Position numbers and translations under genes: made by a program. Below, in pieces: positions 47-5,881 of a stretch of DNA of 5,985 nucleotides. The notes under the pieces are model-generated. The model did no database searches and was not told where the DNA came from. It worked only from the letters and a program-made list of their open reading frames with translations. The number at the start of each line of letters is the position of its first letter. Positions within the stretch are counted from its first letter, which is position 1. The DNA comes from a virus (taxonomy: Duplodnaviria > Heunggongvirae > Uroviricota > Caudoviricetes): the IMG/VR virus record IMGVR_UViG_2693429582_000012; one strand, 5' to 3'.

Positions 47-472
47 TTAGTGCATCACCACAGCATTCCCTGCCGGGCCGCCGCGATTCATCTGGTCATA
101 CAAAACAACCGCTGACGCAACAAAATCATCGACATCCTTCACCAGCCGATCCCTCCGTTCGACGATCTCACGGTAATATTCAGAACTGTGACTGCGCATA
201 CGGGCCACCAGCAAAGGCGGCATCGCCTTTTCGATCGCCGGTAACAGCGCCTGAATTTTTTCAACCGCATCAGGCGTATCCTTCTCCACCCAGCGGAAAA
301 TTTTCTGGGTATTACGGGCCAGGGCTTCCGGATGGCTGTCGTCGTACAGTTCCGGGAACGTCATCCCAAGTTCGAAATAAGTCCGGGCTATTTCAGCTGC
401 AGGCACTTTCTCACCATCAGGATATGCCCAGGCATTCATCGCCATGCGGATGTGTTCATGTTTGATTTTCAT
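47..472 (-). CDS. ydaT: YdaT-like (cII-like) prophage protein, 141 aa
   Basis: Complete ORF beginning MKIKHEHI and ending VVMH, which I recall as characteristic of E. coli Rac YdaT. GGAG lies 7 nt upstream of the ATG (minus 483..480). Its start overlaps the upstream Cro-like gene by 17 nt, indicating an operon. Family assignment is from memory, not a search. Confidence 0.75.
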   Translation of the reverse strand: MKIKHEHIRMAMNAWAYPDGEKVPAAEIARTYFELGMTFPELYDDSHPEALARNTQKIFRWVEKDTPDAVEKIQALLPAIEKAMPPLLVARMRSHSSEYYREIVERRDRLVKDVDDFVASAVVLYDQMNRGGPAGNAVVMH

Positions 473-731
473 GAATCAACTCCGGTGTATTTTGTGTGTT
501 AGCCTTATCTCCAGCAGGCAACCCGTCGGTTGGATTCGGATATAAATCTGGTCGCAATTCATGAGGAGTCACCCCAGTTGCAATATAAATTTGACGAACC
601 CGCTCCCCTGTCGGCACTCGACCATTGTATTCATTTGCCCATTTGTGTATTTGAGACGGCCAAGCCCCTATTGCACGCCCTAGCGGACGAATACCACCAG
701 CAATCTTTATTGCCTTGTCCAATGCTGTCAT
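456..731 (-). CDS. ydaS: Cro-like HTH DNA-binding protein, YdaS family, 91 aa
   Basis: ORF with GGAGG (minus 740..736) 4 nt upstream of ATG 731..729. The translation has a Cro/YdaS-like helix-turn-helix segment (LGRAIGAWPSQIHKW) and the HELRPDLYP motif I recall from YdaS-family proteins. It is divergent from the repressor gene. Confidence 0.8.
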   Translation of the reverse strand: MTALDKAIKIAGGIRPLGRAIGAWPSQIHKWANEYNGRVPTGERVRQIYIATGVTPHELRPDLYPNPTDGLPAGDKANTQNTPELIHENQT

Positions 732-833: not shown

Positions 834-1223
834 ATGGACATGAGAAAAAAGCAATACGACACCCCGCTGGCAGAAAGGTTAGATACGATCTCGCAACAGC
901 ATCATTTAAGCGGTTCAGATTTAGCGCGCATCGCTGGTGTAGGACGCTCATCAGTCAACGCCTGGAAAAAAAGAGGGACAATCAGTAAAGATTCCGCAGC
1001 CAAAATTGCAGAAGCGACAAATGTTTCCCTTTCCTGGCTACTGACAGGAAAAGAAGATACAAACAGAGAGGCGCTTGATGATGATGAGAAAGCCCTGCTT
1101 GATGTTTACAGAAACCTGCCACCTGTAGAGCGTAGAAATATGCTGGCAGCTTTTCAAATGCGCCTTCAAAAACTGACCGAATTTTACTCAGAATACGTTG
1201 ACCCAATAACGCGACAAAAATAA
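834..1223 (+). CDS. Prophage repressor, XRE/CI-type HTH (RacR/DicA-like), 129 aa
   Basis: ORF with an N-terminal HTH (LSGSDLARIAGVGRSSVNAWKKRG). The C-terminal stretch LLDVYRNLPPVERRNMLAAFQMRL resembles, from memory, the C-terminal region of E. coli DicA-type short repressors. It is divergent from the cro-like gene and followed by an intrinsic terminator. An alternative start at ATG 840 is possible. Confidence 0.85.
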   Translation: MDMRKKQYDTPLAERLDTISQQHHLSGSDLARIAGVGRSSVNAWKKRGTISKDSAAKIAEATNVSLSWLLTGKEDTNREALDDDEKALLDVYRNLPPVERRNMLAAFQMRLQKLTEFYSEYVDPITRQK

Positions 1224-1244
1224 TTCTTTATTTTACAAAACAAT

Positions 1245-1267
1245 ACCGCCGGAAGGCGGTTTTTTTT
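1245..1267 (+). terminator. Rho-independent terminator after the repressor gene
   Basis: Stem ACCGCC (1245..1250), loop GGAA, GGCGGT (1255..1260), followed directly by a run of 8 T (1260..1267). Confidence 0.75.
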
Positions 1268-1288
1268 GCCTCTTGCGCATTCACAATG

Positions 1289-1317
1289 TTGACATATGTT
1301 CATCTTAAGAGAACAAT
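1289..1317 (+). promoter_or_regulatory. Predicted rightward early promoter (PL-like) with embedded operator
   Basis: -35 TTGACA (1289..1294), 17-nt spacer, -10 AACAAT (1312..1317). This is the same architecture and nearly the same sequence as the leftward promoter at 759..787. Confidence 0.5.
1297..1315. promoter_or_regulatory. Putative operator: palindrome TGTTC-N9-GAACA (TGTTCATCTTAAGAGAACA)
   Basis: Second copy of the 19-bp palindrome, overlapping the spacer and -10 of the predicted early promoter. Confidence 0.5.
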
Positions 1318-1391
1318 ATATCCCATCAAAGCACAACGGTGCGACAGGTCTTAGTTCCGCCCCCCCGGCGTTAAGGGCAAATGAGGTCAAC

Positions 1392-1544
1392 ATGGATACG
1401 CTCAATCTTGGCAACAACGAATCTCTGGTATGTGGCGTGTTCCCCAACCAGGACGGTACGTTCACCGCGATGACGTATACCAAAAGCAAAACGTTTAAAA
1501 CTGAAGCTGGCGCGCGTCGCTGGTTAGCCAGAAACACTGACTGA
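1392..1544 (+). CDS. Small prophage protein, 50 aa (possibly YdaF/DUF1391-like)
   Basis: GAGG (1383..1386) 5 nt upstream of ATG 1392. The longer ORF from 1296 would start inside the predicted promoter and has no RBS, so the internal start is preferred. The YdaF-like assignment is a tentative recollection. Confidence 0.55.
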   Translation: MDTLNLGNNESLVCGVFPNQDGTFTAMTYTKSKTFKTEAGARRWLARNTD

Positions 1545-1555
1545 TGAGGTTGACG

Positions 1556-2194
1556 ATGGAATTTAAAGATTTACCTCCTTCAATCCAGGAGATTGCAGCA
1601 CACACACTTCGTCATCGTCTGAACGAACTTGAATTGGAATCGGTAACGAAAAAAGACACTGATAATATGGCTCGTAATGTGCGCGATGCGTTTACCGGAT
1701 TGTATTTCTGTGCGTCTATAAATAAACACGACTCAGAGAGTGTGGCAAATAAAATTGCAGAAACGACAGCGCAAAACATCAATACGAAACCAACGGAAGA
1801 AGAAATTGATCAGTTTGCTCATGATGCTGGTTTAAAAAACAAGAAAGAAAAATCGCCATATGCGGGGAACATGTTTGTTTATGACAATCTCATCAGAATT
1901 CGTGGCGAAATTCCGGCGGAATACCTGGCAAGAGTCCATCAGGCATTGCTTAAAAATTTGGAAACAGAATTATTTGATGGCAACACTAACGGTTTCTTCA
2001 TGGTATCAGGCCTTGAGAAAGACTGGGATGCAGAAAAACGCTGGAATGTTGCTACATGGTTATTCAGTAACAGAGCCGCTGCACTGGAAGCTTCGGCATG
2101 TATTTGCGGCCTGTTCTTAACAGACCACAAATATAATCTGGATGTGTACAGTTATATTTACGCTGAACACGGTCCACTCTGGATTGACTGGTAA
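1556..2194 (+). CDS. Hypothetical protein, 212 aa (216 aa if started at ATG 1544); unknown function, AT-rich
   Basis: Long ORF with GAGG (1546..1549) 6 nt upstream of ATG 1556. ATG 1544 overlaps the upstream stop (TGATG) as an alternative start. No recognisable catalytic or nucleotide-binding motif. By eye about 40% GC, lower than its neighbours. Confidence 0.75.
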   Translation: MEFKDLPPSIQEIAAHTLRHRLNELELESVTKKDTDNMARNVRDAFTGLYFCASINKHDSESVANKIAETTAQNINTKPTEEEIDQFAHDAGLKNKKEKSPYAGNMFVYDNLIRIRGEIPAEYLARVHQALLKNLETELFDGNTNGFFMVSGLEKDWDAEKRWNVATWLFSNRAAALEASACICGLFLTDHKYNLDVYSYIYAEHGPLWIDW

Positions 2195-2404
2195 TTATAA
2201 GGAAACACCAGCAGGGCCGCGGCGACCAACAGAACGATTAAAATCAATAATGCCATTATAAAGGACATTATTTAATTTATCGTCGAATGCTGATTCTGTG
2301 AGCCTCAACTCTGAATGAGTTTTTAATAACCCTGATTGCCTGAGTTGATTTACCAGGCATTCAATCTGTTTTTCAATAAGCGGATTTCTTTTTTTGTTTG
2401 GCAT
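2195..2404 (-). CDS. Hypothetical protein, 69 aa, convergent with the 216-aa gene
   Basis: GGAGG (minus 2414..2410) 5 nt upstream of ATG 2404..2402, preferred over the upstream ATG at 2416 which has no RBS. AT-rich, no family recognised. Confidence 0.5.
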   Translation of the reverse strand: MPNKKRNPLIEKQIECLVNQLRQSGLLKTHSELRLTESAFDDKLNNVLYNGIIDFNRSVGRRGPAGVSL

Positions 2405-2755
2405 TTTATCCTCCATTGAGGTTCTGGGTTAAAAATGGAGACCAACACGCTGTCACGTGTGGTCGTGCGCCGGACACGGATAAGAATCCGGTACTGACAG
2501 TTTACTGAAAGGATATTTCCCTGAAAAGTCAGGGCATAACGCGAAAGCGTACGGCGAAGCTCTTTCCCTTAGAAGGCTTGTCGTTAGATTTCTTCGAACG
2601 TGCGCTTCCGGTTGTGGCACTCCGCGAAATGGCGCGGCGGTAAGTATGGCGGGGTTATTCCTTCCCCTTGAGGACACCGGGTTGTCAGGTTGACCATACG
2701 CTTAAGTGACAACCCCGCTGCAACGCCCTCTGTTATCAATTTTCTGGTGACGTTT

Positions 2756-2798
2756 GGCGGTATCAGTTTTACTCCGTGGCTGCTCTGCCGCCCTTTTT
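2756..2798 (+). terminator. Possible intrinsic terminator-like element
   Basis: GGCGG (2756..2760) and CAG (2764..2766) pair with CTG (2785..2787) and CCGCC (2788..2792), with a 3-nt bulge and an 18-nt loop, followed by T5 (2794..2798). The stem is imperfect, so this is weak. Confidence 0.3.
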
Positions 2799-2802
2799 AA
2801 AG

Positions 2803-2950
2803 TGAATTTTGTGATGCGGTGAATGCGGCTAAGCGCACGCGGAACAGTTAAAACCAAAAACAGTGTTATGGGTGGATTCTCTGTATCCGGCGTTAATTGT
2901 TAACTGGTTAACGTCACCTGGAGGCACCAGGTACCGCATCACAAAATTCA
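2803..2950. repeat. 18-bp perfect inverted repeat pair flanking 112 bp
   Basis: 2803..2820 TGAATTTTGTGATGCGGT is the exact reverse complement of 2933..2950 ACCGCATCACAAAATTCA, checked base by base. Confidence 0.85.
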
Positions 2951-2967
2951 TTGTTGAGGACGCGATA

Positions 2968-3156
2968 ATGGAAACGTTATTACCAAACGTTAATACGTCT
3001 GAAGGTTGTTTTGATATTGGTGTTCTGCTCAGTAACCGGGAGTTTACTGAAGATGCCATTAATATGAGAAAATATGAGCCTTATCTGCTCAATGATAATT
3101 CCATACTTTCCCGAATTGCTCTTCTTGAACTTGGTATTTTCGGAGAACGTCAATGA
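2968..3156 (+). CDS. Small hypothetical protein, 62 aa
   Basis: GAGGA (2956..2960) 7 nt upstream of ATG 2968. The longer frame from GTG 2863 has no RBS and would run through the inverted-repeat region. Confidence 0.55.
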   Translation: METLLPNVNTSEGCFDIGVLLSNREFTEDAINMRKYEPYLLNDNSILSRIALLELGIFGERQ

Positions 3157-3344
3157 CTTCAGCATTTGCACTGATGATGACGGTTTTTCTTATAACGGGT
3201 GAATCACAGAATGTGATTACCGGAATTTATGCCAGTAAAGAATCCTGCCTCCAGGCAAGAGACGAGCAAAAAATTTCTGGTGAATGCCTCCCGGTAAAAA
3301 AAAAAGTATCGCTGTACCTGAATAACGAAACACCGGCTGGATAA
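3153..3344 (+). CDS. Small hypothetical protein, 63 aa, with N-terminal hydrophobic segment
   Basis: ATG 3153 overlaps the upstream stop (ATGA), with GGAG (3142..3145) 7 nt upstream. The N-terminus MTSAFALMMTVFLITG is hydrophobic, suggesting a signal or membrane anchor; two Cys residues follow. Confidence 0.55.
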   Translation: MTSAFALMMTVFLITGESQNVITGIYASKESCLQARDEQKISGECLPVKKKVSLYLNNETPAG

Positions 3345-3436: not shown

Positions 3437-5881
3437 ATGAGCACTGATAAAGAAGAATTTGCGCTATATTGCGAAGCAAAAAATGACAAAGTCAGAAAAC
3501 GTCTGGGAATTAAAGGTGGTTTTTACTGGACTACAGCAAAAAAATTATCTGTTGCCATCTCCCGCTGCATTACCGCAATGGATGACAACGATTATGATGA
3601 AGACGACTTTAAAAAACCCGTTCGCGTCCATTTACCCGTTGTGAATGACCTTCCACCTGAAGGCGTGTTTGATACCGAATTCTGCAACCGATACGAAAAA
3701 GGCGGGGAAGATGGCATTACAATGGTATTTATCGCGCCCTCTCCCTCCGTGCAGGAGAAACCAGCCAGTACTGACAATACCAACGTCAACAGCGAAGACA
3801 TGACGGAGATTGAGGAGAATATGCTCCTGCCGGTTTCTGGTCAGGAGCTGCCCATTCGCTGGCTTGCGCAACACGGCAGCGAAAAACCAGTAACGCACGT
3901 TGCACGGGAAGAACTTCAGGCATTACATATAGCACGGGCGGAAGAACTGCCTGCTGTTACTGCCCTGGCCATTTCTCACAAAACAAAGCTGCTCGACCCG
4001 CTGGAGATTCGCGACCTTCACAAACTGGTACGCGACACAGACAAAGTTTTCCCTAATCCCGTTAATTCCAGTCTGGGGTTAATGACTGCTTTTTTCGAAG
4101 CATACCTGGACGCTGACTATACCGATCGAGGTCTGCTGACAAAAGAGTGGATGAAAGGAAATCGTGTTTTACGCATCAGCCGCACGCCATCCGGCGCTAA
4201 TGCTGGCGGAGGAATTCTTACCGATCGCGGTGAAGGTTTTGTCCACGATAATGCGTCAGTGGAACGTGACGTTGCCGCTGGCGTTCTGGCCCGTTCAATG
4301 GACATCGATATTTACAATCCACATCCGGCACACGCCAAACGCATTGAAGAAATCGTTTCAGAGAATAAGCCGCCCTTTTCTGTTTTTCGTGACAAATTCA
4401 TCGCCATGCCTGGTCACCTGGATTATTCCCGCGCGATAGTGGTTGCGTCCGTGAAAGAAGCACCAATTGGTATCGAGGCTACTCCCCACCGTGTTACCGA
4501 ATATCTGAACAAAGTACTGACCGAAACCGACCATGCCAACCCTGATCCAGAAATCGTGGATATTGCCTGCGGTCGCTCCTCTGCTCCAATGCCGCAGCGT
4601 GTAACAAAAGAAGGAAAACAGGATGATGAAGAAAAACCGCAGCCATCTGGCGCAATGGCAGATGAACAGGCAACGACTGAAGCAGTGGAACCGGATACAA
4701 CTGAACATAATCAGGACACGCAGTCGATGGATGCTCAGCCACAGATAAATTCTGTTGATGCGAAATATCAGAAACTGCGGGCAGAACTCCATGAAGCCCG
4801 GAAAAACATTCCGCCCCAAAATCCTGTCGATGCAGACAAATTACTGGCTGCCTCTCGCGGAGAATTTGTTGAAGGGATTAGCGACCCGAATGATCCGAAA
4901 TGGATTAAGGGGATCCAGACCCGCGATTCTGTGTACCAGAATCAGCCAGAAACGGAACAGAACGACCAGAAAGCGGAACAGAACAGCCCAAATACGCAAC
5001 AAAACGAGCCAGAAACGAAACAACCTGAACCAGTAGTGCAACAGGAACCGGAAAAGATCTGCACCGCCTGCGGTCAGAGGAGTGGCGGCAACTGCCCTGA
5101 TTGTGGCGCGGTGATGGGCGACGCAACATACCAGGAAACATTCGATGACAAGAACCTGGTTGAAGTTCAGGAAGACGATTCGGAGAAAATGGAAGGCGCT
5201 GAACATCCACACAAGGAGAATGCTGGCAGCGCTCAGGACCACGCCAGCGATAGTGAAACTGGCGAGACAGCAGATCCCTTAATTACGGTGAACGGTCATC
5301 GCATTATCACATCCACCCGCAGGTTGTGGCACCATCTGATGATTGACCTTGAAACAATGGGCAAAAATCCTGACGCACCAATAGCCTCAATAGGCGCTGT
5401 ATTTTTCGATCCACAAACCGGAGAGCAGGGGCCTGAATTCAGCAAAATAATTGATATGGGTACATGTGGCGGCACTGTAGACATAAGCACCATCGAATGG
5501 TGGCTTCAACGCTCTGGCGAAGCCCGTGCCGCCATTTTAGCTGATCGAATACCGCTTGATGATGCGCTTTTACAATTACGGGAATTTATAGACGAAAACT
5601 CCGGTGAATTTTTTGTCCAGGTCTGGGGAAATGGAGCCAACTTCGACAACACGATTTTGCGCCGTTCATACGAACGGCAGGGGATCCCCTGCCCGTGGCG
5701 TTGCTACAACGATCGCGATGTACGCACAATCGTTGAGCTGGGGAAAGCCATAGACTTCGATGCCAGAACTGCTATCCCATTCGAAGGTGAGCGCCATAAT
5801 GCACTTGATGACGCCCGTTACCAGGCAAAATACGTTTCAGTTATCTGGCAAAAACTGATCCCGAATCAGGCTGATTTTTAA
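3437..5881 (+). CDS. recE: RecE-like recombination exonuclease, 814 aa: RecE-type N-terminal region fused to a C-terminal DEDDh 3'-5' exonuclease domain
   Basis: GAGG 7 nt upstream of ATG 3437. Long stretches (for example [42 protein letters not shown] and [17 protein letters not shown]) match my recollection of E. coli Rac RecE (exonuclease VIII) N-terminal sequence. The last ~190 aa instead carry DnaQ-like motifs: LMIDLETMG (D637, E639), NFDNTIL (D737), [13 protein letters not shown] (H787, D792). Confidence 0.9.

Follow-up and report, generated by a model that had tools for sequence, protein, structure and literature searches.

A convergent, co-inherited gene pair in the dicBF operon of a lambdoid prophage of EHEC type, a candidate accessory cassette with its own predicted antisense promoter

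Results

A gene pair inside the dicBF operon

The DNA analysed here, called the window below, is a stretch of 5985 nt from IMG/VR record IMGVR_UViG_2693429582_000012, and it covers the immunity genes and early-left part of a lambdoid prophage from Escherichia coli of EHEC type. The window is 99.9 % identical to the chromosome of E. coli strain 155. Two convergent genes within it, encoding proteins of 212 and 69 aa (Table 1), form the subject of this report; the segment that they occupy (1556-2404) is 100 % identical in O157:H7 genomes, EDL933 among them.

Table 1. Features of the window discussed in the text; RefSeq/PGAP annotations of the pair come from a 99.9 %-identical E. coli chromosome
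Feature	Position	Strand	Basis or remark
ydaT-like gene	47-472	-	
ydaS/dicC-like gene	456-731	-	
CI/DicA-like repressor gene	834-1223	+	
Bidirectional terminator, 3′ of the DicA-like repressor gene	1245-1260		Prediction
dicBp-like promoter of the early-left (dicBF) operon, TTGACA-17-AACAAT	1289-1317	+	Consensus scan, 10/12 matches; inferred
ydfA-like DUF1391 gene	1392-1544	+	Pfam DUF1391 1.5e-29; PGAP annotation
212-aa gene	1556-2194	+	ORF; RefSeq/PGAP hypothetical protein WP_000394548.1
C-terminal domain of the 212-aa protein, residues 96-212	1841-2191	+	Part always accompanying the small gene
69-aa gene	2195-2404	-	ORF; RefSeq/PGAP hypothetical protein WP_001133037.1
Run of seven A, codons 4-6 of the small gene	2389-2395	-	Recurrent frameshift site
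Predicted 5′ leader of the small gene, ~88 nt	2405-2492	-	Comparison and RNA folding
Shine-Dalgarno GGAGGA of the small gene	2414-2409	-	
Anti-Shine-Dalgarno CUCCAU	2440-2435	-	Pairs with AUGGAG 2416-2411
Leader hairpin 2	2441-2464	-	
Leader hairpin 1	2470-2491	-	
Predicted small-gene promoter	2499-2527	-	-35 TTTTCA 2527-2522, 17-nt spacer, -10 TAAACT 2504-2499
DicF sRNA	2742-2793	+	Rfam RF00039, 75 bits vs gathering score 48
dicB	2968-3156	+	Pfam DicB 2.7e-36; PGAP annotation
ydfD-like DUF1482 gene	3153-3344	+	Pfam DUF1482 1.1e-14; PGAP annotation
recE-like gene	3437-5881		

The 212-aa gene stands in the order ydfA - 212 aa - DicF - dicB - ydfD - recE-like, so that the pair sits within the dicBF operon, which DicA represses, with ydfA on one side and the DicF sRNA on the other. 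This operon has already been described for the Qin prophage of E. coli K-12 (PMC5069750, PMC10448788), and the predicted dicBp-like promoter of the window corresponds in position to dicBp of Qin. The ydfA-like gene opens the operon and forms the conserved left flank of the cassette, and dicB and the ydfD-like gene are known toxic products further downstream in the same operon. A reading made from the sequence only had placed the pair between the immunity and recombination modules, which is true, the more exact position being the ydfA to DicF interval of the operon. The ‘GC-rich block’ of that reading (2417-2967) is the structured, untranslated DicF precursor, near-identical to K-12 Qin from about position 2460. 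Operon transcription toward DicF must traverse the small gene in antisense.

Two further features of the window were recorded. Several short hairpins lie on the operon strand of the DicF precursor, for example CCCTGAAAAGTCAGGG at 2520-2535 and ACGCGAAAGCGT at 2540-2551. The 814-aa recE-like protein has an Exonuc_VIII segment at its N-terminus and, at its C-terminus, an Rv2179c-like 3′-5′ exoribonuclease domain (5e-64); no recT-like gene is present within the window.

The stop codons of the two genes abut, as first noticed from the letters alone: TAA at 2192-2194 adjoins TTA at 2195-2197 (reverse complement TAA). The absence of a terminator between them was likewise borne out, with no intrinsic terminator predicted on either strand of 1556-2404; across 1200-3000 the only predictions were those at 1245-1260 and DicF's own, at 2776-2791. 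Transcripts of the two convergent genes must therefore overlap. The larger ORF had been given as 216 aa at 1556-2194, and that length needed correction, since these coordinates encode 212 aa and the 216-aa form arises from an alternative ATG at 1544. The start at 1556 (MEFKDLP) is that of all homologues and of the PHROG profile, and is preceded, 6 nt upstream, by a GAGG Shine-Dalgarno sequence. The ATG at 1544 overlaps the ydfA stop codon (TGATG), so translational coupling would be possible from it.

Two coding genes of no known family

Both ORFs are genuine coding genes under purifying selection. The dN/dS ratio of the small gene was 0.23-0.29, and in the 212-aa gene it was 0.06-0.18 for the C-terminal half and 0.3-0.65 for the N-terminal half. 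The pair has a GC content of 0.403 (0.413 for the 212-aa gene and 0.371 for the 69-aa gene), against 0.471 for the whole window. The contrast with the flanks that had been drawn for the pair holds in relation to the repressor gene (0.446), ydfA (0.503), the 2417-2967 block (0.503) and the recE-like gene (0.496), but not in relation to dicB (0.370) and the ydfD-like gene (0.417); as these two are just as AT-rich, low GC is not peculiar to the pair.

That neither protein carries a motif of a known family was upheld: neither matches Pfam, NCBIfam or PADLOC, and both match only PHROGs that have no assigned function. No toxin, antitoxin or defence family in these three collections was matched by either protein, and searches of the literature by accession or by operon gene names found no study of either. 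Structure and profile searches, which had been proposed as a check, also returned nothing significant among folds, PDB sequences, Pfam or NCBIfam.

The 212-aa protein matches phrog_2151 over its full length (1.9e-147, residues 5-216 on profile positions 1-212). It is acidic (pI 5.2) and soluble, with a maximum Kyte-Doolittle 19-residue mean of 1.16. An exhaustive HMMER search of 1.84 billion representatives divides it into two domains. The N-domain (residues 1 to ~60-90) heads many small early prophage proteins with differing C-termini. The C-domain (~100-200) has almost no relatives, the search finding only P0180, P0191 and some fragments; the C-terminus of P0180 is 39 % identical to the C-domain. 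The motifs FDGxxNG and W.FS..AA.E are invariant in the C-domain alignment (A8), and no Cys or His is invariant across its three clades.

The AlphaFold2 model (pLDDT 67.8) shows a helical N-domain and a C-domain of beta-beta-alpha-beta-beta-alpha-beta topology. The top Foldseek match of the C-domain in two independent libraries was the Prp/YsxB/TM1457-like small alpha/beta fold, a match that is not significant (E 0.006-0.03, TM-score ~0.4-0.45) and that comes from a model of modest confidence. The catalytic His/Cys dyad of the Prp/YsxB cysteine protease is not conserved in the C-domain clades. Among PDB sequence profiles the C-domain had no match and the N-domain matched only Noc (E 0.05), which we treated as chance. 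An N-like antiterminator was ruled out on inspection of the sequence only, the protein having no arginine-rich motif. As a side observation, two giant proteins, P0173 and P0184 (2862 and 5212 aa), have 9-14 segments matching N-domain profile residues 17-71; one of the two also matches Pfam F_actin_bind, and the N-domain-like repeats may reflect composition.

The 69-aa protein matches phrog_4274 (1.4e-51, residues 5-73 on profile positions 1-69). It is basic (pI 9.7) and soluble, with no transmembrane segment (maximum Kyte-Doolittle 19-residue mean 0.22), and a type I toxin was rejected as its identity because the protein is hydrophilic. The motif SGLLKT and a C-terminal RRGPAGVxL tail are kept. 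AlphaFold2 gave two helices at pLDDT 61.7, too weak for a fold search, and PDB sequence profiles matched only a C-terminal strand and helix of Amidase_3 (E 0.2), treated as chance.

A predicted promoter and structured leader for the small gene

Comparison across lineages strongly supports the small gene being an autonomous unit, with a sigma-70-like promoter of its own and a structured leader predicted to be able to sequester its Shine-Dalgarno sequence. The leader is conserved in E. coli, in Salmonella and in Cox-type elements. At least eight unrelated upstream sequences share one layout, in which 6-7 nt separate a -10-like hexamer from hairpin 1 and a -35-like hexamer lies another 16-18 nt upstream; the transcription start predicted near 2492 comes from comparative inference only. 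RNAalifold recovered hairpin 1 and the anti-Shine-Dalgarno helix, and the U-G pairs of hairpin 1 fit a minus-strand RNA. Hairpin 2 is maintained by different sequence pairs across lineages, with compensatory changes (judged from single folds). The Shine-Dalgarno sequence, the ATG and the anti-Shine-Dalgarno pairing are all conserved, which argues for regulated translation of the small gene.

A second promoter-like match, at 2432-2403, was rejected because its -10 hexamer overlaps the start codon. In L021, L035 and other loci the stem of hairpin 2 (2445-2460) is the same and its loop is reverse-complemented (TGACAG vs CTGTCA), as if inverted. K-12 Qin (L002 3043-3160, minus strand) keeps the promoter-like hexamers and hairpins 1 and 2, and behind these antisense hairpins there is no Shine-Dalgarno sequence, ATG or small ORF; any transcript from this site would be an antisense RNA to ydfC.

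Variable presence and co-inheritance

The pair is variably present, a point that a comparison of the same locus across related prophages had been proposed to check. Counted as present where at least 80 % of its length was covered, it occurs in 568 of 5426 complete E. coli genomes (~10 %, mostly Shiga-toxin producers), against 4757 for the flanking dicF/dicB DNA. It was absent from all deposited phage genomes searched, and neither gene was found in GTDB species-representative genomes. In K-12 Qin the same ydfA to DicF precursor interval, with homologous flanks, holds ydfB and ydfC, which both run with the operon and show no relation to the pair in translation or in DNA alignment. The pair replaces them: homology to K-12 Qin ends at the ydfA stop and returns near 2460. 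ydfB and a ydfC-like gene can also coexist with the pair: depending on the related prophage, the pair directly follows ydfA, ydfA-ydfB, or ydfA-ydfB plus the ydfC-like gene, and the adjoining immunity regions vary as well.

Throughout the E. coli and Salmonella loci examined, the genes lie tail-to-tail with a gap of 0 nt. Two distant clades keep the tail-to-tail arrangement with overlaps of 11 and 53 nt, on elements that carry a P2-type Cox and an integrase. Their C-domains are 27-39 % identical and their small proteins 41-56 % identical to those of the pair. The distant partners are 206-286 aa long, have a different N-terminus and in some cases an HTH_3 insert; the small gene (64-69 aa), convergent and overlapping, shares SGLLKT and an RRGxPAGVxL tail. 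A Salmonella variant has lost the N-domain in frame and kept the start context, the C-domain and the small gene. As the N-domain is swapped or lost while the C-domain and the small gene are retained, these two are the minimal conserved unit.

Both genes were present and convergent in 149 of the 155 loci retrieved from IMG/VR, and the small gene was found alone in none of the 155. The remaining loci lie at contig ends, match the C-domain in part (one locus) or, in three cases (L218, L224 and L228), give a tblastn hit to the C-domain and none to a small gene; these three probably correspond to the small-gene deletion of L073, L112 and L143. Taken across three clades that diverge to ~40 % identity, the comparison strongly supports the C-domain and the small protein having been co-inherited over long divergence.

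Decay of the pair was uneven. The small gene is frameshifted or deleted with its partner kept in ~11 contigs, against two loci with a frameshifted large gene, counts that are not of independent events as contigs may be clonal. In five leader-bearing loci a 1-nt deletion in the run of seven A leaves a 17-aa product, and the partner gene there is intact (212 aa) in four and shortened (187 aa) in one; in eight IMG/VR contigs the small-gene match is limited to residues 4-69. These patterns slightly favour the small protein as a putative dispensable active factor.

The Salmonella element represented by L003 and L010 also carries tandem C4 antisense RNA and isrK repeats beside three Phage_ASH genes (e.g. 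L010 7064-8578), together with a Mu-type repressor, a Ner-like gene and an integrase.

A variable slot that shares one leader

When IMG/VR was scanned with an 18-mer from the leader, 120 stretches were returned. In these, the same leader, Shine-Dalgarno sequence and ATG stand in front of no fewer than 14 unrelated small ORFs (59-100 aa), every one antisense to the early operon. Several of these ORFs run into the 3′ end of a gene for an N-domain protein, and the C-terminus of that protein varies with the ORF type; others have no partner gene. One matches GhoS marginally (21.2 bits vs a cut-off of 21), and the others matched no known family. The comparative data lend good support to the view that the two genes form a genuine cassette inherited as a unit, that the antisense small gene is expressed autonomously, and that the slot is a variable accessory one.

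A second convergent pair bears the same leader: a 112-119-aa N-domain protein is overlapped by a 64-aa ORF (MSEQELKLG..., phrog_4987). In Salmonella this pair lies directly downstream of the first one (L010 4979-5500). In E. coli O104:H4 C227-11 the phrog_4987 ORF (L021 2828-3022) has a truncated pseudogene as its partner.

Discussion

The locus recalls the sieB exclusion gene of lambda, P22 and Rac, which, like the small gene, is antisense and convergent and lies just downstream of the first early-left genes. The suggestion that this position commonly holds accessory cargo thus agrees with known prophages, since sieB occupies the matching antisense, tail-to-tail slot in lambda and Rac. In lambda the stops of N (35037-35438, minus strand) and sieB (34482-35036, plus strand) abut as they do here at 2194/2195. 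In Rac, ydaF (DUF1391) and sieB share 4 nt, and the kilS sRNA and the division inhibitor kilR come next, paralleling DicF and dicB; sieB-ydaF appears among the convergent excludons of K-12 transcriptomes (PMC12288877). The likeness is one of position. Neither protein of the pair has any Pfam match at E <= 0.1, and no DNA similarity was found between the pair and the sieB region of Rac or lambda. SieB is a membrane protein of 162-192 aa (Rac hydropathy peak 2.19), whereas the 69-aa protein is soluble and basic (0.22), and SieB, unlike the small protein, has no co-inherited convergent partner domain.

Two other kinds of system invite comparison. As in convergent excludons, the genes converge with no room for separate terminators; a promoter for each is predicted, from consensus matches for dicBp and from conserved position for the small gene, and mutually exclusive expression is likewise a prediction. 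A trait beyond excludons is that the two proteins look like cognate partners. As in effector-immunity and type II toxin-antitoxin systems, the genes are tightly linked and the small protein is matched to the variable domain of the larger one, one partner being predicted as inducible and the other as apparently constitutive, with complementary charges. Type II toxin-antitoxin genes, however, form a co-directional operon, whereas the pair is convergent in every locus, and it shows neither homology to known toxin, antitoxin or immunity families nor a membrane immunity protein.

We propose, with a probability of about 0.4, that the pair is a convergent, excludon-type cassette whose small basic protein is made in the lysogen and neutralized by its acidic partner upon induction. 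Under this model the pair would occupy the ‘sieB slot’ of a dicBF-type lambdoid prophage as an accessory cassette complete in itself. Of its two proteins only the small basic one would be made in the lysogen, where it may carry the accessory activity, most plausibly the exclusion or abortion of other phages, or another function directed at nucleic acid. Once the operon fires, convergent transcription and sense-antisense RNA pairing would stop synthesis of the small protein, and the acidic C-domain of the 212-aa protein would bind and neutralize the molecules already present, by which the prophage would escape its own factor. The complementary charges (pI 9.7 vs 5.2) count toward the small protein being active and the partner neutralizing, as does the HTH that precedes the C-domain in some partners, an arrangement found in antitoxin-like neutralizers.

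Most of the same facts are also compatible with reversed roles, in which the large protein is the effector and the small one its antidote. The C-domain would then act on the host after induction, and the constitutive 69-aa protein would neutralize leaky expression. We think this unlikely, even if the linkage and co-divergence of the two proteins apply to it equally. A conserved N-domain followed by a polymorphic C-terminus and a matching convergent small gene, with C-termini that vary along with the small ORFs, would suit such a system, and the immunity genes of pore-forming colicins are convergent and constitutive. The operon, moreover, already encodes toxic products, DicB and DicF (PMC5069750). 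However, the small gene is frameshifted or deleted at several loci where the 212-aa gene is intact, an antidote role leaves the several slot ORFs that have no partner unexplained, the HTH before the C-domain is more typical of a neutralizer or regulator, and no toxin family is matched.

It seems improbable that the locus is instead a cis-regulatory device, in which antisense transcription damps read-through to DicF and dicB by transcriptional interference and RNase III cleavage of duplex RNA, and the two proteins are functionally unrelated. The necessary overlap of the transcripts would serve such a device, K-12 Qin keeps the promoter and the first two hairpins with no small ORF, and the equivalent Rac pair is a documented excludon (PMC12288877). 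Against this, purifying selection acts on the protein encoded by the small ORF, which is conserved down to ~42 % identity while synonymous sites are saturated, and the conserved Shine-Dalgarno sequence, ATG and anti-Shine-Dalgarno pairing point to regulated translation.

Abutment alone proves nothing, as lambda N and sieB abut identically and are not partners; a zero spacer offers no neutral recombination point, the linkage could partly reflect that, and phage mosaic junctions usually fall at gene boundaries. Mere adjacency of two unrelated accessory genes is nevertheless improbable too, for the large gene has recombined internally (N-domain alleles, replacement, deletion, HTH insert) while its C-domain and the small gene stay together, and in no retrieved IMG/VR locus does the small gene have another neighbour.

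A broader and more tentative proposal concerns the leader. Together with the conserved antisense promoter, it may mark an unrecognized early-left hotspot in the lambdoid prophages of Escherichia and Salmonella, many EHEC prophages among them, which would hold polymorphic, lysogen-expressed small effectors, several of them with a cognate neutralizing C-domain borne by an early lytic protein; the pair would be the founding member of a new-fold, two-protein exclusion-and-escape (or effector-immunity) family.

The dicBF region is a well-studied toxic prophage locus, present in several copies per EHEC strain. If the proposed reading is true, the genes upstream of DicF would be an exchangeable cassette with an antisense expression platform rather than inert filler, and that platform would add a layer of control over DicF and DicB output. 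The leader would also serve as a compact search marker for dozens of uncharacterized small prophage proteins with possible roles in phage exclusion or host modulation. Small and clonable, the pair is present in roughly a tenth of complete E. coli genomes, so that the proposed switch is directly testable.

A separate observation was made on the other side of ydfA. In some related prophages (L012, L013, L016 and L022) a PaaA2/RelB-ParE toxin-antitoxin pair is inserted upstream of ydfA, after the repressor gene, so that the same operon leader contains another variable slot.
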